A program made the position numbers and the translations under genes. Under the pieces are notes generated by a model, which saw only the letters and a list, made by a program, of their open reading frames with translations, had not been told where the DNA came from and did not search any database. Of a DNA stretch of 64,000 bases, positions 4,830-34,161 are shown piece by piece (positions within the stretch are counted from its first letter, which is position 1; every line of letters starts with the position of its first letter). This DNA comes from Parcubacteria group bacterium GW2011_GWC1_45_13. GTDB taxonomy: Bacteria; Patescibacteriota; Minisyncoccia; UBA11713; 2-01-FULL-45-33. Where the stretch lies: contig LCKG01000004.1 in assembly GCA_001001285.1 (NCBI GenBank), positions 1,957 to 65,956 on the forward strand, written 5' to 3'.

Positions 4830-5553
4830 AAAAATAATTTTCTTCGGCGGTTTTAAGGTGTTTTCTGAAATATATCTTAATGCTCTCAAAAGCGCCGGTT
4901 TTGAAATTGTCTTAGAAGCCAAAAACGCGGATCTGGGCATTATTGCTTACTACGGAAAAATTATACCGAAAGCTGTTTTGGAGCTACCTAAATATGGGTT
5001 TTTGAACGCCCACCCGTCGCTGCTCCCCCGCTGGCGGGGGCCGTCTCCAATCCAGGCGGCTATTTTGGCCGGAGACAAAACCACCGGTGTGACTATACAT
5101 ATGGCAACGGAGGAGCCTGACGCCGGGCCGATTTTAGCCCAGAAAGAAATTCCGATAGAGCCCGAGGATACCTGTTTTAGCTTAACCGGGAAGCTCGCTA
5201 ATGAAGGCGCGGCGCTTTTAATCCCGACTATTGAAAAATGGCTTTTGGGTAAAATTGCTCCAAAAGAGCAGGACCACTCCAAGGCCACTTTCACTAGATT
5301 GATTAAAAAAGAAGATGGGCTGATTGATTGGACCAAGGGCGCCGAATATATAGAAAGAATGGTGCGGGCGTATAACCAGTGGCCCGGGACATTCATAAAA
5401 ATGAAAAATGGGAAGATTTTAAAAATAAAAAAGGCAGCGGTAATAAATGGTGCTTTAAAACTTTTAATAGTCCAGCCGGAGGGGAAAAAAGAAATGGCGT
5501 ATGACGCTTTTGTGAGAGGACACAGGGAGATTATAGGAGAGCCGCTCCGATAG
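4822..5553 (+). CDS. fmt: Methionyl-tRNA formyltransferase (compact)
   Basis: NAHPSLLPRWRGPSPIQ and DAGPI motifs; follows def. Confidence 0.95.
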   Translation: MPKKIIFFGGFKVFSEIYLNALKSAGFEIVLEAKNADLGIIAYYGKIIPKAVLELPKYGFLNAHPSLLPRWRGPSPIQAAILAGDKTTGVTIHMATEEPDAGPILAQKEIPIEPEDTCFSLTGKLANEGAALLIPTIEKWLLGKIAPKEQDHSKATFTRLIKKEDGLIDWTKGAEYIERMVRAYNQWPGTFIKMKNGKILKIKKAAVINGALKLLIVQPEGKKEMAYDAFVRGHREIIGEPLR

Positions 5554-6226
5554 CAGCGGCGTTTTTGCCGAATTTCGATTTTCTTACAGGCAATTTTACC
5601 GCTTTTTGAAACTCAGCCACAAAATTTTGCCTTCCGGTTACTCCCCCGCCAACTATTATTAGTTTAGGGTTGTATTCTTTAAAGCGCCATTTCAAATGTT
5701 GGACTAAAAAAATGGCGAGGGCGTAGTTATTTTTTGAATCGCGTAATTTCTGATATTCTTTTTCCCAGCTCTCTGGGTACTCAAATTTTTTAATTTTTAA
5801 AATTTTGCCGGCTCTGCTGATCGCGCGCCCTATGCCCGTCCCCAGCGTAATAAATAAAACGGCCTGCCCGTCTAAATGCGTTAGCCCTGCCTTGCCAGTA
5901 GGCAGGTTTTGGTGGGCTCTCGCGAAACACCTAGCATCGTTATCAAGCCGCAACTTAGACGTCGGACGTCTAAGTTGCGAAATATCAAAATTTTTAAGAT
6001 ATTTAATGTTGGGGCAAAATAGAATTTTATTTCCTGAAACTGCGCCGGGCACTCCGATGCCGATTTTCTTTGCGCGGTAACTTTTTAAAATATTTTCCAA
6101 AAGCTTTTTAAAAGCGGCTAAATTTTTAGGCGTTTTAAACTCGCGAGCTTTTACGGCCCGCTTGCTGTCCCACAAAACCGCGCGTATTTTTGTGCCTCCA
6201 ATGTCTATACCTAACATAATATCCAT
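5531..6226 (-). CDS. ROK family sugar kinase-like protein
   Basis: GIDIGGTK, GIGVPG, DNDA and TLGTGIG motifs; carries two palindromic inserts. Confidence 0.88.
   Translation of the reverse strand: MDIMLGIDIGGTKIRAVLWDSKRAVKAREFKTPKNLAAFKKLLENILKSYRAKKIGIGVPGAVSGNKILFCPNIKYLKNFDISQLRRPTSKLRLDNDARCFARAHQNLPTGKAGLTHLDGQAVLFITLGTGIGRAISRAGKILKIKKFEYPESWEKEYQKLRDSKNNYALAIFLVQHLKWRFKEYNPKLIIVGGGVTGRQNFVAEFQKAVKLPVRKSKFGKNAAAIGAALL
5886..5906. repeat. Family B 21-nt palindrome inside ROK gene
   Basis: CCTGCCTTGCCAGTAGGCAGG; near-identical copies at 20421, 45639, 48672 and 60171. Confidence 0.9.
5949..5979. repeat. Family A (GACGTC) palindrome inside ROK gene
   Basis: CGCAACTTAGACGTC-G-GACGTCTAAGTTGCG with perfect 15-bp arms; same core as the copies around the transposase. 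Confidence 0.9.
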
Positions 6227-11374: not shown

Positions 11375-12910
11375 ATGAAAAATTCTGCTTACTGGCTGAT
11401 TGTAATTATTTTAATTGCCGTTTTTTTGAGATTTTGGGATTTAAAAAATACTCCGCCCGGGTTTTGGTTGGATGAGGCTATGAACGGAACCAATGCTATC
11501 CAGGCTATAGAGATTAGTGGCTGGAAGGTGTTTTACCAGGAAAATTTCGGGAGAGAGGGATTATTTATAAATATCCAAGCGTTATTTGTAAAAACTTTTG
11601 GCCACGAGCCATGGGTTTTGCGCTTGCCTTCGGTGATTTTCGGCTTATTAACGGTCTTGGGACTTTATTTTTTGACAAAAGAACTGTTTTCTGGGCGTGT
11701 TTCGCTTTTCGCGTCTTTTTTTCTGGCAACTTCGTTCTGGCACATTAATTTTTCACGAATCGGGTTCCGCGCGATAATGGCTCCGTTTTTTTTGGTTTGG
11801 GCGTTTTATTTTTTATTTTTAGGAATGCGGAAGCAAAAAGAATGGATTTTCACCTCAGCCGGATTTACTTTCGGCCTCGGCTTTCACACTTATATTGCCT
11901 ATCGCGCCGCGCCCATAATCGCGTTTTTGCCTTTTTGGAGTTTTTATAAATCATGGCGAGAGGACACCGGACGTCCACTTGGACGTCCGGTGTCCAAGCA
12001 CTGCGCTCCATGCTTAATTGGCCTTTTTATTTTCATGGCGTTTTTAGCGGCATTGCCATTGCTCTGGTATTACGCCCAAAACCCTGCTGATTTCCTAGGC
12101 AGGACCTCGGCAATATCAGTATTTAAATCTTCAAATCCGCTTGGCCAATTTTCAGAAAATTTGGTAAAAACTTTGGGAATGTTTAATTTCGCCGGAGATT
12201 TCAATTGGCGGCACAATTTAGCAGGTTCGCCCCAGCTTTGGTGGCCCGTGGGAATTTTATTTTTGATAGGGATTTTTGGAGCATTGCGCTCGAGTGTTTT
12301 CCCGCGCAATGCTTATAATTTTATTTTGCTGTGGTTCATTGTCATGATTCTTCCCGTCGCGTTTTCAAATGAATCTCTGCCTCACGCGCTTCGCGCCATT
12401 GTTTTAATACCGCCAGCTATGATTTTCGCCGCTTTGGGGCTGGACTGGCTTTGGAGAAATGTCAGGCCGCGGCTTAGGATTTTTATTTATATTTTTTTAG
12501 TCACCGCCGCGATTCAGGCATACAGCCAGTATTTTCTCCGCTGGGCGCCAAACTTTAATGTTTATCAAGCCTTCCATACTGACATTACGGAAAAGGCGCG
12601 TTGGCTCAACAAACAACCAAATGATATTAAAAAATACGTCATAACTGACGCGGTTGATCGGGTAGACACAACCGGAACGCCCATGTCATTTCAGCCAATA
12701 ATTTTTATTACTGATACTGCCACGCCGGCAAAACAGACAAGGAAAAACATCTATTATGCTTCTCTGCAAAATATTTCTTCAGCAAATTGTTCCCAAAAAT
12801 GCCTTTTCGTGCCCGTTGAATACCAACCTTCCATTTTTAAAATTATCAAACAAAAAATCCCGGGTTTGCGTCTAGACGCCTCTTCGGGATTTGTGGTTTT
12901 GAAAAAATGA
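11375..12910 (+). CDS. GT-C fold (ArnT/PMT-like) glycosyltransferase
   Basis: Multi-TM protein; LRFW..DE motif in the first loop; RLPS. Confidence 0.88.
   Translation: MKNSAYWLIVIILIAVFLRFWDLKNTPPGFWLDEAMNGTNAIQAIEISGWKVFYQENFGREGLFINIQALFVKTFGHEPWVLRLPSVIFGLLTVLGLYFLTKELFSGRVSLFASFFLATSFWHINFSRIGFRAIMAPFFLVWAFYFLFLGMRKQKEWIFTSAGFTFGLGFHTYIAYRAAPIIAFLPFWSFYKSWREDTGRPLGRPVSKHCAPCLIGLFIFMAFLAALPLLWYYAQNPADFLGRTSAISVFKSSNPLGQFSENLVKTLGMFNFAGDFNWRHNLAGSPQLWWPVGILFLIGIFGALRSSVFPRNAYNFILLWFIVMILPVAFSNESLPHALRAIVLIPPAMIFAALGLDWLWRNVRPRLRIFIYIFLVTAAIQAYSQYFLRWAPNFNVYQAFHTDITEKARWLNKQPNDIKKYVITDAVDRVDTTGTPMSFQPIIFITDTATPAKQTRKNIYYASLQNISSANCSQKCLFVPVEYQPSIFKIIKQKIPGLRLDASSGFVVLKK
11962..11998. repeat. 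Family A-derived compound palindrome inside glycosyltransferase
   Basis: GGACACCGGACGTCCA-CT-TGGACGTCCGGTGTCC (16-bp arms). 11978-11998 differs from CTTGGACGTCCGACGTCCAAG at 2 positions; reads DTGRPLGRPVSK. Confidence 0.85.
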
Positions 12911-25488: not shown

Positions 25489-26191
25489 TTTTTGAAATTA
25501 TATCCACTTCGTCAAGCAAAACTGGCGATACCGGAGAAATTACGCTGATTTCTTTAAATGGTTCGTCGAACTCAGAAGAAATTCTATCAACTACTCCCGC
25601 GATATATTCGGGGTTCTCGGCTGAACGGAAAATATCCCCTATTTTTAAATTCGTCTCCGCAGGCATCTCCATTTGAAACTCTCCACCGCCGCGGCCCGTA
25701 GCCTCCATGGGAACGAATTGAATATTTTCTAAAGCATCTTGGCGCAACGTAATTTTATCTCCAACGTGCCCCAAAAGAGCCGCCTTGCTCCAGTCTGCGC
25801 CGACCTCCGTGATCCGCCCGATGAGAATTTTATTTTGATAAGTAACCAGATCGCCAATTTTTATTCCTGCGTTCTCGCCTTGATTTATAAAAAGAATGTC
25901 AGAAAAAAGATAACCTCCTCCGAAAACGATATTAGCCGGTATCAGTCTATTTTTGCCGTTTACTCCCAGAGCTTTTTTTAGTTTAAGATTTTCTCTTTCA
26001 AGATCCCTGATTTTAATAAGCAACGCCAAAGCTTGGTTACTGGCCTGCCGGGATTCGCGTTCGGGGACCAAAAAAAGTGAAGCTTTGATAATTAAATTTT
26101 TGATGAAGCCTCGGCTACCGCCAAAAAAAACCAGCACTAGAAGCACCGCCCAAAAAACCTTACTTTGGAGGGAGATCATAATCATCTTCAA
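25481..26191 (-). CDS. mreC: Rod shape-determining protein MreC
   Basis: TM, LERENLKLK coil, INQGENAGIKIGD; follows mreB. Confidence 0.88.
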   Translation of the reverse strand: MKMIMISLQSKVFWAVLLVLVFFGGSRGFIKNLIIKASLFLVPERESRQASNQALALLIKIRDLERENLKLKKALGVNGKNRLIPANIVFGGGYLFSDILFINQGENAGIKIGDLVTYQNKILIGRITEVGADWSKAALLGHVGDKITLRQDALENIQFVPMEATGRGGGEFQMEMPAETNLKIGDIFRSAENPEYIAGVVDRISSEFDEPFKEISVISPVSPVLLDEVDIISKND

Positions 26192-27212
26192 TAAAAACTT
26201 CGCGAAAACTGTCTATATCCTCCAGAATTATTCCGGTTCCCCGCACCACAGCCGTCAAAGGATCTTCCGCCAAATAAACCGGCATTTTTGTTTCGCGCTC
26301 CAAGAGCTTGTCCAAACCCCGAATCAAGCTCCCTCCGCCCACCAATAATATTCCGCGATGCATGATATCAGCCACCAGCTCCGGCGGAGTATCTTCTATG
26401 GTGCCCTTTACTCCGTCCGCGATTAAGCGGATAGATTTGGCTAAAGCAGCCCGCACATCGCTGTCCGTTACCAAGACTTCCCTCGGCAGTCCAGTTACCA
26501 AATCCCTTCCGCGCAAGGTTCCCTCAAAAATTTCGTTCGTTTTCCAAACCGACCCGATTGAAATTTTTATATCTTCTGCGGTGCGCTCGCCTATCAAAAG
26601 TTTAAATTCGTCTCTGGCGTAATTGGCAATGTCCTCGTTGAATTTGTCGCCAGCAACCCGTAAATTGCGGGACGCAACGATGCCGCCTAAAGAAATCACA
26701 GCAATATCCGTCGTTCCGCCGCCTGCGTCTATCACCATACTCCCTACCGCTTCCTGAATCGGGAGCCTCACGCCGATAGCCGCGGCCATCGGCTCCTCCA
26801 CCAAATAAACCTCTCTGGCTCCGGCGTTGTGAGCCGCATCCCGCACGGCTCGACGCTCAACTTCCGTGATGCTGGAGGGAATGCCAATCACCACGCGCGG
26901 GCGAGCGAAAAGCTGGGCGGAAGAGCTATGCACTTTTTTTATGAAATAATTGAGCATCTCCGCCGTAACCTCAAAATCCGAGATCACTCCCTCAACCAAG
27001 GGGCGCAAAGCAATAATATGACCTGGCGTCCGCCCCAGCATTTTTTTGGCATCATGGCCAATGGCCACCACCTGCCCGGTTTTTTGATTAATGGCCACTA
27101 CCGAAGGCTCATTGATTAAAATGCCCTCGCCGCGCACGTAAACAAGTGTATTGGCGGTGCCCAAATCAATCCCCAGATCTTTTGAAAAGATGCCAAAAAT
27201 TTTATTTATCAT
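26160..27212 (-). CDS. mreB: Rod shape-determining protein MreB
   Basis: GIDLGTANT, EPSVVA, EEPMAAAIG and DAGGGTT motifs. Confidence 0.97.
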   Translation of the reverse strand: MINKIFGIFSKDLGIDLGTANTLVYVRGEGILINEPSVVAINQKTGQVVAIGHDAKKMLGRTPGHIIALRPLVEGVISDFEVTAEMLNYFIKKVHSSSAQLFARPRVVIGIPSSITEVERRAVRDAAHNAGAREVYLVEEPMAAAIGVRLPIQEAVGSMVIDAGGGTTDIAVISLGGIVASRNLRVAGDKFNEDIANYARDEFKLLIGERTAEDIKISIGSVWKTNEIFEGTLRGRDLVTGLPREVLVTDSDVRAALAKSIRLIADGVKGTIEDTPPELVADIMHRGILLVGGGSLIRGLDKLLERETKMPVYLAEDPLTAVVRGTGIILEDIDSFREVFIEDDYDLPPK

Positions 27213-28513: not shown

Positions 28514-28849
28514 TTAATGAATATTTGATTGACGAAGACGGCTTGCTTTTTCCGGATCAATGCCGAGAATTTGATATTTTTCCCTTGCCTTTGATTCAGT
28601 TATGTCCCCTTTCTCTAAAACCTTTCTATCCAACGCTCCTAAAATAGCTATGCGTGCTTTTAAAAAATCGCCATCGTCAAGATAAATAGCTACATTATCT
28701 TGCCCCTCATCGGTCATTAATTCCGTCGCTAGTTTTAGAAGTTGTTGCTTATATTCTTCATCCCTCCTCAAATCCGTCCCTTCTTTCATATTTATCTCCT
28801 CCTTCATGTATTTATTATAAAAACTAGCATGTCTAAAAAACTTTGGCAA
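28514..28849 (-). CDS. Hypothetical protein
   Basis: Charged ORF; the true start is probably an internal Met (~28808 or ~28790, the latter preceded by AGGAGGAG). Confidence 0.6.
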   Translation of the reverse strand: MPKFFRHASFYNKYMKEEINMKEGTDLRRDEEYKQQLLKLATELMTDEGQDNVAIYLDDGDFLKARIAILGALDRKVLEKGDITESKAREKYQILGIDPEKASRLRQSNIH

Positions 28850-28866
28850 TTTGGTGATTGATTACC

Positions 28867-28893
28867 CCACTTGGACGTCCGACGTCCAAGTGG
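28867..28893. repeat. Family A palindrome just downstream of transposase
   Basis: CCACTTGGACGTC-C-GACGTCCAAGTGG. Confidence 0.93.
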
Positions 28894-28896
28894 CTA

Positions 28897-29541
28897 TTAA
28901 TTTTCTAAAGATAACAGAACCTCTAGCTCTTTTAATAATTCTTTTCTTTGTAAAATATTTTTTAATGACTCTTCTCCAAATGTCTTATATTCTTTTTTGT
29001 TTTTAAATTGCTTAAGAATAATATTTTTATTACAAAGGTTTTCTTCACTTGAACTAATAAATTCTTCCCAACTAGAATAGGCGCCCCCCTCTTTTAATCT
29101 ATGTGCGCGGTTATTTAAATTTACATAAACGCTTGCATGCAATAAATATTCATTGGAATCAATATGACTAGATTTAAATTTGCCCTGAAAAAGTACGCCG
29201 CTCCTTTTATATTTATTATTAAAATACTTTGTATAGCCACCATTTAATCTTTTCATAAACTCGCTTAATCCACCGTCTGTTTTTGGCTCCAAAATCATAT
29301 GATAATGATTTGGATTAAGGCAATAGCAAATGATATTCACCAACTTGGACGTCTGACGTCCAAGTCGGGGTTTATCGAATGAATTTTCGTAAATACTGCC
29401 TATTGGTTCTAGAGAATTAAATTCCTTCATACTTTGAAGAAACCTCTTGAAATCATAATCGTTGTTAAATACAATACGCTTATCAGTGCCGCGGTTATAG
29501 ATATGATAAAATTCACCAATCATGAAAGCGGTTTTTCTCAT
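28897..29541 (-). CDS. HUH tyrosine transposase (Y1/IS200-like, REP-associated RAYT type)
   Basis: YHIYNRG, YCL.PNHYH (HUH), YFN.KY.RSG.LFQ..FKS, YV.LN and YSS motifs. Confidence 0.9.
   Translation of the reverse strand: MRKTAFMIGEFYHIYNRGTDKRIVFNNDYDFKRFLQSMKEFNSLEPIGSIYENSFDKPRLGRQTSKLVNIICYCLNPNHYHMILEPKTDGGLSEFMKRLNGGYTKYFNNKYKRSGVLFQGKFKSSHIDSNEYLLHASVYVNLNNRAHRLKEGGAYSSWEEFISSSEENLCNKNIILKQFKNKKEYKTFGEESLKNILQRKELLKELEVLLSLEN
29343..29365. repeat. Family A palindrome inside the transposase gene
   Basis: ACTTGGACGTC-T-GACGTCCAAGT, read as RLGRQTSKL. Confidence 0.92.
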
Positions 29542-29555
29542 GATACTATATTAGC

Positions 29556-29578
29556 ACTTGGACGTCCGACGTCCAAGT
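29556..29578. repeat. Family A palindrome just upstream of transposase
   Basis: ACTTGGACGTC-C-GACGTCCAAGT. Confidence 0.93.
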
Positions 29579-29595
29579 TGGGAAGTGGGTATAGA

Positions 29596-30657
29596 CTAAA
29601 AAACTTTGGCAATGTCGTGGTAAGTTACTACCAACATAAGAATAATTAAAATCGCGAGGCCTAAACTGTGCACCAGGGCGCTGGCCTTGGGAGAAATCCT
29701 GCGGCCAAGCAAACTTTCAATCAAAAGAAAAAATAATCTCCCACCATCCAAGCCTGGGAACGGTAAAATATTGATTAAAGAAAGATTAATGGATAAAACG
29801 GCAATTAATATAAGAAGGGCGCCAAAGCCAAGATTGATAGCCGAAGAAGTGATGTTAAAAATTCCCACAGGACCAGCGACTTCAATCGGTGGGGTTTCTC
29901 TTTCAAACAAGCTTTGTACAAGATTCCAAAATCCCAAAACCGTTCCTTTTAAAATTTCCCAAGTGAACCGGGCGCCGTCTATCGGAGCCAGATACCACGA
30001 AGTTTTTTTTACGCGCGTAAGACCGAGAGCAATCCCCAACGGCCCCTCCCCTTCCGGCGGATTTTGGCGAGAAAGCGCGCTGATCTCAATAGAATTTTTA
30101 CCTCGGATCATTGTGATTGAGATTGTTTTCCCTTGGTTTTGTTTAATAAGATTTTGCACGTCTTTTATTGTTTGAAAACCCGGAATCTGGTCTCCTGGCA
30201 TAATGCCGGCGCGGGACGCAGGCGAATTCGGCACCACATCCATAATGGTTATTTTAGCGTCGGGATAAATATTGCTTTCCTCTTCGGAGACGACTTGCGG
30301 AACGCCCAAACTGCTTACCAAAGTAAGCGCAAGAAAAGCTAAAATAATATTCGCTAATACGCCGCTGGCCAGTATCACGGCCCTTTTCGGGACAGGTTTT
30401 GACCCAAAACTTTCCGGCTGAGAAACTTCGTCACCCTCTTCGCCAAAAATTTTCACAAATCCGCCAAAAGGCAGAAGATTTAAAGAATAAAGAGTATCAT
30501 GCTTATCGCGCCATAAACTCAAAATCCGAGGAGGGATGCCGAATCCAAATTCTTCAACTTTAACGCCAAAGAACCGCGCCGTAAAAAAATGTCCGGCCTC
30601 GTGGGAGAGTACTAGGATTATAAGAATAGTCAGAAAAATTAAAAAAGTTAAAAGCAC
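29596..30657 (-). CDS. rseP: RIP metalloprotease RseP (M50) with PDZ
   Basis: HEAGH, PFGGFVKI and NILPFPGLDGG motifs. Confidence 0.94.
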   Translation of the reverse strand: MLLTFLIFLTILIILVLSHEAGHFFTARFFGVKVEEFGFGIPPRILSLWRDKHDTLYSLNLLPFGGFVKIFGEEGDEVSQPESFGSKPVPKRAVILASGVLANIILAFLALTLVSSLGVPQVVSEEESNIYPDAKITIMDVVPNSPASRAGIMPGDQIPGFQTIKDVQNLIKQNQGKTISITMIRGKNSIEISALSRQNPPEGEGPLGIALGLTRVKKTSWYLAPIDGARFTWEILKGTVLGFWNLVQSLFERETPPIEVAGPVGIFNITSSAINLGFGALLILIAVLSINLSLINILPFPGLDGGRLFFLLIESLLGRRISPKASALVHSLGLAILIILMLVVTYHDIAKVF

Positions 30658-31951: not shown

Positions 31952-32344
31952 TCAGCCAAACAATACTTCAATTAAAGCTAATTTAAGCCTTTCAAATTGG
32001 GCTTCGTCCAGTGTTCCTATTTTACGCACCAACCTTTTTGTATCCAATAAGCGAACTTGCGAAAGCACGGCTGTCGCATCTTGCCCTATGATTTTCCCCA
32101 AGTAAAAATAATGTTTTCCGACCTTTTTTCTACCAGTTAATCCTACTCCAAAAAATGTATTTTTATTAAAGCCGCGCACTACGATTACCGGCCTGTCAAA
32201 ATTCTTGCCTGTTCCATCTTGTTCAAAACCAATATTGACGCCTAACGAACACCACCATATCTCGCGCTCATGATAAAAGTGTAAAACATTCTGGCTGTGC
32301 AGTCTTTTCTTGTTTATGTTCCATCTATCAAAATCCTTTTCCAT
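31952..32344 (-). CDS. PemK/MazF-family toxin-like protein
   Basis: EIWWCSLGVNIGFEQDG..RPV and LSQVRLLD.KRL; start placed at MEKDFD. Confidence 0.85.
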   Translation of the reverse strand: MEKDFDRWNINKKRLHSQNVLHFYHEREIWWCSLGVNIGFEQDGTGKNFDRPVIVVRGFNKNTFFGVGLTGRKKVGKHYFYLGKIIGQDATAVLSQVRLLDTKRLVRKIGTLDEAQFERLKLALIEVLFG

Positions 32345-32348
32345 AATC

Positions 32349-33146
32349 TTATTCTTTATTCTTATCCCTCTCCTCCACAAATTTTTTAACTTCCTCGTAG
32401 CTCATCTTCTTTGGCCAATATAAGTTGCCATATACATCGTAAATTGGTAATAACAAATTCCCTTTTTCTTTATAAACTTGTTCAGATAATATTCCGATTT
32501 CTGCAGCTAATTGGTCATATTGGTAATTATCCTGTAGTTTTAACAAAATGCCATTGAAAAAACGTGGTGGTACTCGGTGAGACAAATTAAAACCATAAGC
32601 TGTGGTAAATTTTCTTGTACTTCGCTTATAATATGTTTCATAGTACTTACGACTCATTTTATTCGTATCGTCATCATATGTGAATTTAGACAGGTCAAAT
32701 ATGAAAGCTAGTGCGTTTTTCTTTGAACTTCCTGCAGATTTACTTATCCATGTTTCTCCTGACTGCGTATTCGGCGTTTCCTCTTCATGCGCCATACCTG
32801 TTACATTAAAATAAACGTTAGATCTTCCTCCTTTTCTAAGCGAAACCTGAGCTTCTTTTGCCCACTGTTCCTTTGTCGGCGGCACTCCCTCCAAATAAAA
32901 TTTTTCTGGGGTGCCTAGTAATCCTTCTTTCAAAATCCGCACGAGTTTTGTTTTTTGTAAGTTATCCTGTTCAAATATGGACCCTGCAGAGTACGGCCCT
33001 CCGCTCACAAAAGAATAAGCTACCCCTGCTTCATTAATATCCTGCACCTTGTTCATCACTTTCTCTAAAACTTCCGGAGAAAGTTCGGATTCTGGAGATT
33101 TAGTACTTTCTTTAAAGCTTTCTATTGCTGGCGGTTTTTCGGGCAT
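32349..33146 (-). CDS. Hypothetical protein (AT-rich)
   Basis: Long ORF with start placed at MPEKPP; contains ILKEGLL and PIYD..GNL.WPK. Confidence 0.75.
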   Translation of the reverse strand: MPEKPPAIESFKESTKSPESELSPEVLEKVMNKVQDINEAGVAYSFVSGGPYSAGSIFEQDNLQKTKLVRILKEGLLGTPEKFYLEGVPPTKEQWAKEAQVSLRKGGRSNVYFNVTGMAHEEETPNTQSGETWISKSAGSSKKNALAFIFDLSKFTYDDDTNKMSRKYYETYYKRSTRKFTTAYGFNLSHRVPPRFFNGILLKLQDNYQYDQLAAEIGILSEQVYKEKGNLLLPIYDVYGNLYWPKKMSYEEVKKFVEERDKNKE

Positions 33147-33147
33147 A

Positions 33148-34161
33148 TTATCTTTTCGCCACGATGCTTTTTTTGTAGGAATCCAAATGCTCAAGAGCAG
33201 TGCCAGTGCCTTTAGCCACGCAATAAAGCGCGTCTTTAGCCACGGTCGCTGGCACGCCCGTAGAGCGCGTGACCAAAACGTTTAAATTTCGGAGAAGCGA
33301 TCCGCCCCCAGTCATCACAATCCCGTTTTCTATAATATCGGACGCCAGCTCCGGCGGAGTATTATGCAGAACCTGCTTGATGGCTTTTATAATATCTCGC
33401 AGTTCGCCGTCTATTGCTTTCACCACTTCGTTGGTACGGATGTCTATGGATCTGGGAAGTCCAGTCAAAAAATCGCGTCCCTTGATTGTAGTAGTCAATT
33501 CTTCTTCCAGAGGAATTGCGGATCCTATGCCTATTTTTATCTGTTCCGCAGTTGTGTCGCCGATCGCCAAATTAAACTGTTTTTTAATATAATCAGCAAT
33601 GGCTTGGTCAATTTTACCCCCGGCAACTTTTACTGAAATGGAACTCACTATCCCGCCCAAAGAAATCACGGCGGCGTCCATCGTTCCTCCACCGATGTCC
33701 ACCACCATATGCCCTCTGGGTTCGTGGATCGGAATCCCCGCGCCAATTGCCGCCAACACCGGCTCTTTTACCACATAAGCGGATTTGGCTCCGGCTTTTA
33801 TCGCCGCTTCCACCACCGATCTTCTTTCGGTGGAAGTGACCCCGGCCGGAACCGAAATCAAAACTTCCGGCTTTATCAAATTCCACCTGCCTACTGTTTT
33901 TGAAATAAAATAGCGTAGCATCGCTTCCGTCACACGATAATCCGCAATCACGCCGTCCTTCATTGGACGGTAAGCAATGATGCTTTCAGGCGTGCGCCCG
34001 ATCATGACTTTTGCTTCCACGCCCACCGCCAGTATCCGATTTTCCGGAAGAGAGACGGCTACCACCGACGGTTCGTTGAGAACTATTCCTTGCCCAGGCA
34101 CGTAAACTAAAGTGTTGGCTGTTCCCAAATCTATTCCGATTTTTTTTATAAATAAATTCAT
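33148..34161 (-). CDS. mreB: Second MreB/Mbl paralogue
   Basis: GIDLGTANT, EPSVVA, DIGGGT and TPPEL motifs; follows murA. Confidence 0.93.
   Translation of the reverse strand: MNLFIKKIGIDLGTANTLVYVPGQGIVLNEPSVVAVSLPENRILAVGVEAKVMIGRTPESIIAYRPMKDGVIADYRVTEAMLRYFISKTVGRWNLIKPEVLISVPAGVTSTERRSVVEAAIKAGAKSAYVVKEPVLAAIGAGIPIHEPRGHMVVDIGGGTMDAAVISLGGIVSSISVKVAGGKIDQAIADYIKKQFNLAIGDTTAEQIKIGIGSAIPLEEELTTTIKGRDFLTGLPRSIDIRTNEVVKAIDGELRDIIKAIKQVLHNTPPELASDIIENGIVMTGGGSLLRNLNVLVTRSTGVPATVAKDALYCVAKGTGTALEHLDSYKKSIVAKR

Follow-up and report, generated by a model that had tools for sequence, protein, structure and literature searches.

The nuclease gene and its surroundings

The window, i.e., the whole analysed stretch of 64,000 nucleotides from contig LCKG01000004.1 of Parcubacteria group bacterium GW2011_GWC1_45_13, carries on its minus strand, at 28897..29541, a gene coding for a 214-aa nuclease of the HUH/Tyr (Y1) type with H79, H81, and Y139 as the catalytic residues. 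The first-pass annotation took this ORF for a HUH (RAYT-like) transposase, and the ORF is indeed intact, with a match to Pfam Y1_Tnp above the cut-off (35.8 bits) and with H79, H81, and Y139 invariant in 81/81 aligned Y1 sequences. The structure model of the nuclease (mean pLDDT 90.5) is least reliable at residues 51-60, adjoining a palindrome-coded loop, and its top Foldseek match is E. coli TnpA-REP (4ER8, E 9e-6); the sequence alignment to 4ER8 is weak (E 0.046), and the score against the NCBIfam RAYT family NF047646 is below threshold (29.2 bits, the cut-off being 80). The model ends in one long helix (residues 182-211), and no C-terminal HTH was found by Pfam.

The gene is flanked by two copies of a palindrome, referred to here as family A. 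The upstream one (29556..29578; 11-bp arms with a 1-nt centre) ends 14 nt before the ATG at 29541 and spans the would-be −35 region, and the downstream one (28867..28893; 13-bp arms) lies 3 nt past the stop at 28897; the distances of 15 and 4 nt given previously reflect a different counting convention. A third copy (29343..29365) is situated in frame within the gene itself and encodes LGRQTSK (residues 60-66), in the loop that is modelled with the lowest confidence. Two more copies are located at a distance, the first being an A/T variant with 15-bp arms (5949..5979), in frame in a ROK kinase gene (5531-6226, minus strand), where it encodes LRRPTSK, and the second an inverted dimer of one full and one footless hairpin (11962..11998), in frame in a PMT-type glycosyltransferase gene (11375-12910, plus strand), with the same two substitutions in both halves. 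The two host ORFs match Pfam ROK and PMT_2, respectively. A search with the 19-nt core, allowing up to 3 mismatches, recovered all five annotated copies as 5 matches in the window vs 0 in 100 shuffles. Folded as single-stranded DNA, each of the five forms a hairpin, with z from −4.1 to −8.3. The palindromes lack a 5' GTAG, in agreement with the earlier remark that no GTAG-type tetranucleotide is present, and have a foot made of paired ACTT/AAGT; their flanks display no more than a slight preference for G, on the 3' side. An assembly artefact is ruled out, since contigs of two other studies (runs X8 and X17) span the cassette formed by the gene and its palindromes with 0 differences.

The upstream palindrome is joined to an extended −10-like box (TG-n-TAnnnT; 29548..29556, minus strand), the first T of which doubles as the final base of the palindrome and which ends 6 nt before the ATG, suggesting a leaderless promoter; a simple −35/−10 scan did not list it. 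The pattern is present in 35/39 genes of the clade to which the nuclease belongs, with a Shine-Dalgarno-like word in just 2/39, and the upstream palindrome ends 14-18 nt before the ATG in 35/39 of them. In 31/39 genes the box abuts the palindrome, and such a perfect dyad with a 1-nt centre over a promoter speaks for the palindromes being double-stranded DNA sites of a dimeric self-repressor, which would also mark other loci and be matched to the protein by selection for binding without the enzyme moving them; the long C-terminal helix predicted by the model could serve for dimerisation. Against this operator role stand the invariant catalytic residues, the lack of an HTH in both the Pfam search and the model, and the inability of E. 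coli TnpA-REP to cut dsDNA, as given in the portion of PMC3333891 used here. We regard the operator model as unlikely; an operator and a hairpin-nuclease role of the palindromes are not mutually exclusive.

The whole cassette is inserted in a slot between rseP and proS. Its left boundary is the 3' end of the working rseP gene coding for an M50 peptidase (29596..29628, minus strand), and directly after the cassette comes a spare rseP 3' end (28833..28865, minus strand), 82% identical over 33 nt. Between the latter and proS lies a 97-aa ORF without a Pfam match (28514..28807, minus strand), which is missing from the slot in 10 relatives examined and is a probable cargo of this variable site. In the neighbourhood there are a PemK/MazF-like toxin gene of the toxin-antitoxin type (31952-32380, minus strand) and two ORFs 6 kb apart (26160-27212 and 33148-34161, minus strand), which we take, from their translations, to be MreB-like.

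Each enzyme has its own palindrome

The host genome (756 kb in 28 contigs) contains six Y1 genes, the other paralogues being 37-62% identical to the window nuclease. Each of the six is flanked on both sides, ahead of the start and past the stop, by a palindrome of 21-27 nt peculiar to it, and 5/6 have a further in-frame copy. Four of these palindromes are of the ACTTGG-variable-CCAAGT form with different interiors, and two are of other types.

Y1 homologues were found in 36/61 genomes searched, including 18/19 within the same family. The flanks were read for 91/139 homologue matches, comprising 45 of the nearest clade and 46 others. An ACTT-type flank is present in 42/45 of the nearest clade, which bears out the idea that homologous transposases are flanked by palindromes of their own; beyond this clade, the upstream and downstream palindromes agree with each other in 24 of the 29 scorable cases among the 46. 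The layout with three copies, upstream, in-gene, and downstream, recurs in a record titled Wolfebacteria (L359). In-gene palindromes number 40 in 40 Y1 genes, all in one phase and at two fixed sites. For 38/40 of them the flank of the same gene is the joint nearest relative, at a distance of 0-2 in 38 compared with a median of 6-9 to other genes, and the class of the palindrome switches at least 18 times on the tree. A fixed foot and length characterise the palindromes in 20/20 genomes of the family (0-1 in controls), and the arms pair least often next to the centre (68 and 71 of 80 for the innermost base pairs), in the manner of a loop. Each Y1 gene thus has a palindrome of its own on both sides, further copies of which are scattered over the same genome, and a change in the enzyme goes along with a change in the palindrome.

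Two homologues, L055 (G006:C15:17091-17717) and G016:C17:11823-12452, have one internal stop codon each, and L055 is broken near the in-gene palindrome.

Copies in host genes and exchange of families

The five sites of the window are not the only ones. Apart from the copies at the gene, family A occupies six loci of this genome and is in frame at each, namely in the LepA, GltX, RecR, UvrB, ROK, and glycosyltransferase genes, and it is found in 12/19 genomes of the same family; in LepA, GltX, and UvrB the site falls between Pfam domains. The sister families of this genome are located in the genes for DprA, pseudouridine synthase, UvrC, MPG, SecA, a LamG protein, and a Pyr_redox enzyme, and in two GH1 genes. 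Altogether, 17/27 palindrome sites of the genome lie inside ORFs of at least 120 aa, and among relatives 41/57 re-read family-A matches are inside long ORFs, in all three phases. The number of generic palindrome copies per genome ranges from 1 to 46. In public genomes at least 60 exact family-A stretches are present, and among the matches listed 58 come from records titled as Patescibacteria/CPR groups, the remaining two being from one record titled "bacterium" and one Bdellovibrionales. The in-frame palindromes in conserved genes are probably translated, judging by the intactness of the essential ORFs.

The proposal that the system writes short peptides into coding genes does not hold as far as targeting is concerned. 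Among the matches listed, 29/60 family-A copies lie in an open frame, defined as open for 120 nt on both sides, compared with 72% of random stretches from this genome, and therefore family A has no preference for genes. Neither are the copies simply added peptides. Relative to palindrome-free orthologues, the loop is only 0-3 residues longer with a single copy, though such a copy encodes 7-8: the ROK loop has 22-23 residues with and 21 without the palindrome, that of the glycosyltransferase 22 and 21, and the MPG loop 24-27 and 24, with two shorter ones at 20. No target duplication is seen at the palindromes (2 nt in 3/80, 3-4 nt in 0/80). This small net gain, together with the lack of target duplication, indicates that a palindrome for the most part takes the place of loop codons. 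Orthologous host loops carry other residues, which follow other palindromes, or have no palindrome at all, as the annotation implied for a genuine insertion.

Dimers lengthen the loop more, by 7-11 residues (31-32 vs 20-21 in LepA). Each is a local duplication in inverted orientation, with the halves meeting at the foot, and local substitutions are copied into both halves, which fits fold-back synthesis. Local templated repair would have the same outcome, so that host replication alone might be considered, with template switching perfecting quasi-palindromes and making fold-back dimers without any dedicated enzyme. Such a process cannot place the same 23-nt sequence at numerous loci that are unlinked, nor can it yield a family for each enzyme or the foot and length fixed across 20/20 family genomes; the family-per-enzyme pattern largely refutes it, and we consider it very improbable.

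The ROK, glycosyltransferase, MPG, LepA, and RecR loops carry different palindromes in different genomes, and the palindrome present tends to be that of the resident enzyme. At loci picked by host gene, 14/25 copies are within 1 mismatch of the flank of an enzyme of their own genome, compared with 2.4 +/- 1.5 under shuffling of genomes (maximum 9 in 5000; kinship uncorrected). A genome-wide tally made by eye gives 86/149 dispersed copies matching their own enzyme and a null of 30.4 +/- 9.2 (maximum 70 in 20000 shuffles; kinship likewise uncorrected). One MPG loop accommodates four ACTT-type families in a single register, with exact matches to the own enzyme in G002, G003, G015, and G016. Since both the dispersed and the in-gene copies track their own enzymes despite at least 18 class changes, the sites appear to be rewritten or refilled as the enzyme sequence changes. 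The MPG copies of G002 and G003 have flanks in common and are set apart by four of their inner bases, and for this pair point changes under the operator model could suffice; that model would need many de novo origins to account for the mid-gene copies in unrelated genes at lineage-specific places.

The remaining 63/149 dispersed copies match no resident enzyme, the genomes being incomplete. The first-pass annotation placed a candidate enzyme in cis with its palindrome, and such an enzyme is often missing where the palindrome persists: the family-A palindrome is kept and its enzyme was not found in the incomplete genomes G001, G002, G005, G007, and G014, and no enzyme of the ACTT clade was found in G001 (15 copies), G012 (six), and G017 (one), also incomplete. 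The ROK copy of the window was described as carrying compensatory G>A/C>T changes on both arms. The changes are present, yet they are not private to this copy and constitute rather the commonest family-A form in relatives, where this form also flanks the relatives' own enzyme; G002, of the same genus, has it at the same ROK site. The copy is inherited from an ancestor of the genus and is two bases off the flank of the present enzyme.

The fate of the rseP-proS slot is similar. Among 11 genomes, rseP leads straight into proS in two, a family-A cassette follows it in two, a cassette of another subclade in five, and another gene in two. As different cassettes occupy the slot in different genomes, cassettes have been exchanged at this one site. 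The spare rseP 3' end is carried by this genome, G002, and G007. In G002 (L292) half of a family-A palindrome is left after the transposase stop, between the other-subclade cassette and the spare rseP end, and is apparently a trace of cassette replacement. Recombination with the DNA of relatives explains this exchange as well as transposition does. It can be extended to the whole system, the palindromes then being old, the loops, cassettes, and segments being shuffled by homologous recombination, and the enzymes being passengers. Co-inheritance of this kind probably explains the cassette exchange at rseP, where a diverged duplicate gene end is found in the slot and where cargo at times occurs with no enzyme at all (G007), and it accords with the ROK copy common to G002 and unlike the exact form of the present enzyme, with the orphan family-A copies in five genomes, and with the MPG flanks shared across genera. 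It leaves unexplained the in-gene copy that matches its own flanks across at least 18 class changes, and also the exact matches of host-gene copies to their own enzymes, since 15/27 at a distance of 0-1, with 14 at 0, would have to be due to chance. As a general account we hold it to be quite unlikely.

No excised or empty allele was seen in near-identical contigs, which drop rare variants, and no close pair of an empty and a filled site occurs in the set, the orthologues being 50-89% identical.

Several other repeats accompany these palindromes. The ROK gene has a second short palindrome in frame (5886-5906), unrelated to the first, in an insertion of 12-15 residues that the closest ROK orthologues lack; this palindrome folds weakly (z −1.7), and none of the Y1 genes of the genome is flanked by it. 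Two further GC-rich families, spread over several contigs of this genome, CCCGA..TCGGG (15 sites, 10 in ORFs) and CCGCCA..TGGCGG (9 sites, 8 in ORFs), have no matching gene among the six Y1 genes. In the ROK (L003) and RecR (L201) genes of G001 a GC-rich palindrome of another family is nested in or beside the family-A copy, and so palindromes may be targets for other elements. A second MPG loop (L160-L165) contains repeat-like insertions of 35-45 codons in six genomes, and a similar one is present in RecR of G018.

Proposed mechanism and relation to REP systems

Taken together, these data are best described by a REPtron-like system of a CPR-specific clade, in which an enzyme acting on its own hairpin spreads copies blind to genes; we assign this reading a probability of roughly 0.68. 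The model for its biochemistry is that of TnpA-REP, in the parts of PMC3333891 and PMC3479197 used here. By analogy, the palindrome would be bound by its enzyme in the form of a single-stranded hairpin, a helix matching the minor-groove helix of E. coli TnpA-REP would read the inner base pairs that vary, and the paired ACTT/AAGT foot would be used instead of a GTAG guide. A nick would be made near the foot, with its CT as the candidate cut site, and strand transfer or primed repair would paste a copy elsewhere, in most cases in place of a few bases there and with no target duplication; inverted dimers would arise by fold-back repair. Since the foot is common to sister families, an earlier copy, or one permissive loop, could serve again, so that the site ends up with the palindrome of the resident enzyme. 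In a genome that is ~90% coding, the copies surviving such gene-blind spread would be those in linkers and surface loops that do not disturb the reading frame. The copy overlapping the promoter would probably provide feedback control, and copies would outlive the enzyme upon cassette loss or exchange.

The putative hairpin-reading helix comprises residues 91-110. In a covariation scan the top columns for palindrome positions 7, 8, 9, and 10 are residues 105, 105, 96, and 97, respectively, i.e., the best covarying column falls within residues 96-105 for four of the six variable positions. Residues 97, 101, and 105 align to R78, K82, and H86 of helix C of E. coli TnpA-REP, which occupies the hairpin's minor groove and makes base contacts through R78 and K82, according to the section of PMC3479197 used here. 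With independent pairs (1-2 on supported branches) the residue-base link falls short of significance, and reading of the hairpin by residues 97, 101, and 105 is a lead, not a result. The same residues would form the code of a hairpin-swapping editor, in which the enzymes, without a GTAG guide, rewrite resident palindromes in place, the copy in their own gene included, and recode 7-8 loop residues with the frame kept, the cassette moving as a unit. In-place rewriting by each enzyme is suggested by the one foot and one length shared by sister families; we treat this version as possible and rather doubtful.

The REPtron-like system proposed here has in common with the REPtrons (RAYT/TnpA-REP of groups 2 and 3 with REPs and REPINs), as presented in the consulted parts of PMC8266576, PMC3479197, and PMC3333891, the HUH/Tyr fold, cognate flanking palindromes dispersed genome-wide, one family per paralogue, inverted doublets, and perfect stems as in group 3. 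It differs by the lack of a 5' GTAG, the paired foot, copies in tens and not hundreds, about half or more of them coding, the multiple paralogues within a genome, and the occurrence of different cassettes at a single slot. According to the introduction of PMC8266576, there is no evidence of tnpA-REP mobility, and the mechanism of REP spread by RAYTs "remains to be elucidated".

In its motifs the nuclease departs from the RAYTs. YVNLNN replaces Y-x-x-x-N-P, the signature of class 2 TnpAY1 in the excerpt of PMC6006769 used, with P lost in the ACTT clade and kept in sister CPR subclades, and the GTAG-reading residues W94, Q95, E/D100, and R104 align to F118, Q119, S124, and D128, Q95 alone being kept. 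The motifs NHYH, LFQ, and SSW correspond to NH[YF]H, FQ, and the proximal SS of TnpAY1 subclass 2.1 (RAYT group 1, TIRYT; portions of PMC6006769 and PMC3733652), and Y[IV]HLNP of that subclass is common to the sister CPR subclades. Among plasmid genes, the best relatives have terminal inverted repeats of the GGGGTCAG type, the GGGGWSAS motif being present at the three examined. These motifs and the nearest plasmid relatives point to TIRYT/subclass 2.1 as the closest group. The flanks here are self-palindromic, unlike the GGGGWSAS terminal inverted repeats of subclass 2.1, for which the part of PMC6006769 used here reports a C-terminal HTH and no REP-like sequences, its REP search having covered complete genomes under a GT[AG]G-foot rule. 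The clade of the nuclease, supported by an SH-aLRT of 99 in a quick tree of 42 rows with four outside references and long branches flagged, carries an extra loop ahead of the HUH strand, and its profile collects 3038 clusters at E below 1e-30.

Subclass 2.4 (RAYT group 4), in the passages of PMC6006769 used, also has an in-frame REP in the gene and a tetranucleotide with its complement at the two ends ("double-foot"). Its insertions are situated between HUH and Tyr, its foot is GT[AG]G, and its motifs are WQ and YIxNNP, whereas here the insertions precede HUH or follow Tyr, with an ACTT foot and the motifs FQ and YVNLN. Membership in the GTAG RAYT groups, subclass 2.4, and the families of Rickettsia palindromic elements (RPEs) failed on the features tested. 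IS200/IS605 was rejected as well, given paralogues 37-62% identical in place of near-identical copies, YVNLN in place of Y-x-x-x-Q, and no tnpB adjoining the gene.

In-frame REPs in host genes and in the transposase gene itself have been published (PMC3733652 and PMC6006769, respectively, in the parts used), and the in-frame behaviour as such is therefore already known for other REPs. With intragenic REPs and RPEs (parts of PMC3733652 and PMC3184786) the system has in common frequent dimers and in-frame palindromes in genes of repair, replication, and translation, such as uvr, tRNA synthetase, and pseudouridine synthase genes. RPEs are about 105-146 nt long in the excerpt of PMC3184786, compared with a 23-nt unit and a 37-38-nt dimer here. 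CGTC-type repeats have no dedicated transposase in the account of PMC3733652 used, and RPEs and these repeats differ from the present families, each of which has an enzyme and which replace one another in one loop in different genomes. Our literature search found no paper on such palindrome-enzyme systems in CPR bacteria. Four points are added here: an exchange of families at one and the same site, backed by a statistic, the swapping of cassettes at rseP, the finding that genes are not targeted, and the placement of the variable residues on the known reading helix. Palindromes are now placed on the branch nearest to a subclass reported as REP-less, and they continually supply streamlined genomes with loop sequence for essential proteins. 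Within the clade there are dozens of naturally occurring enzyme/hairpin pairs built on a single scaffold, with a wide choice of inner sequences, landing sites in common, and a helix that is a candidate for the reading, and this combination makes specificity and mechanism testable by simple swaps.

At L058 and L059 (in G019 and G007) there is a palindrome family with a conserved stem mismatch, which is also dispersed in G007 and G015 and recalls the bulged group-2 REPs.
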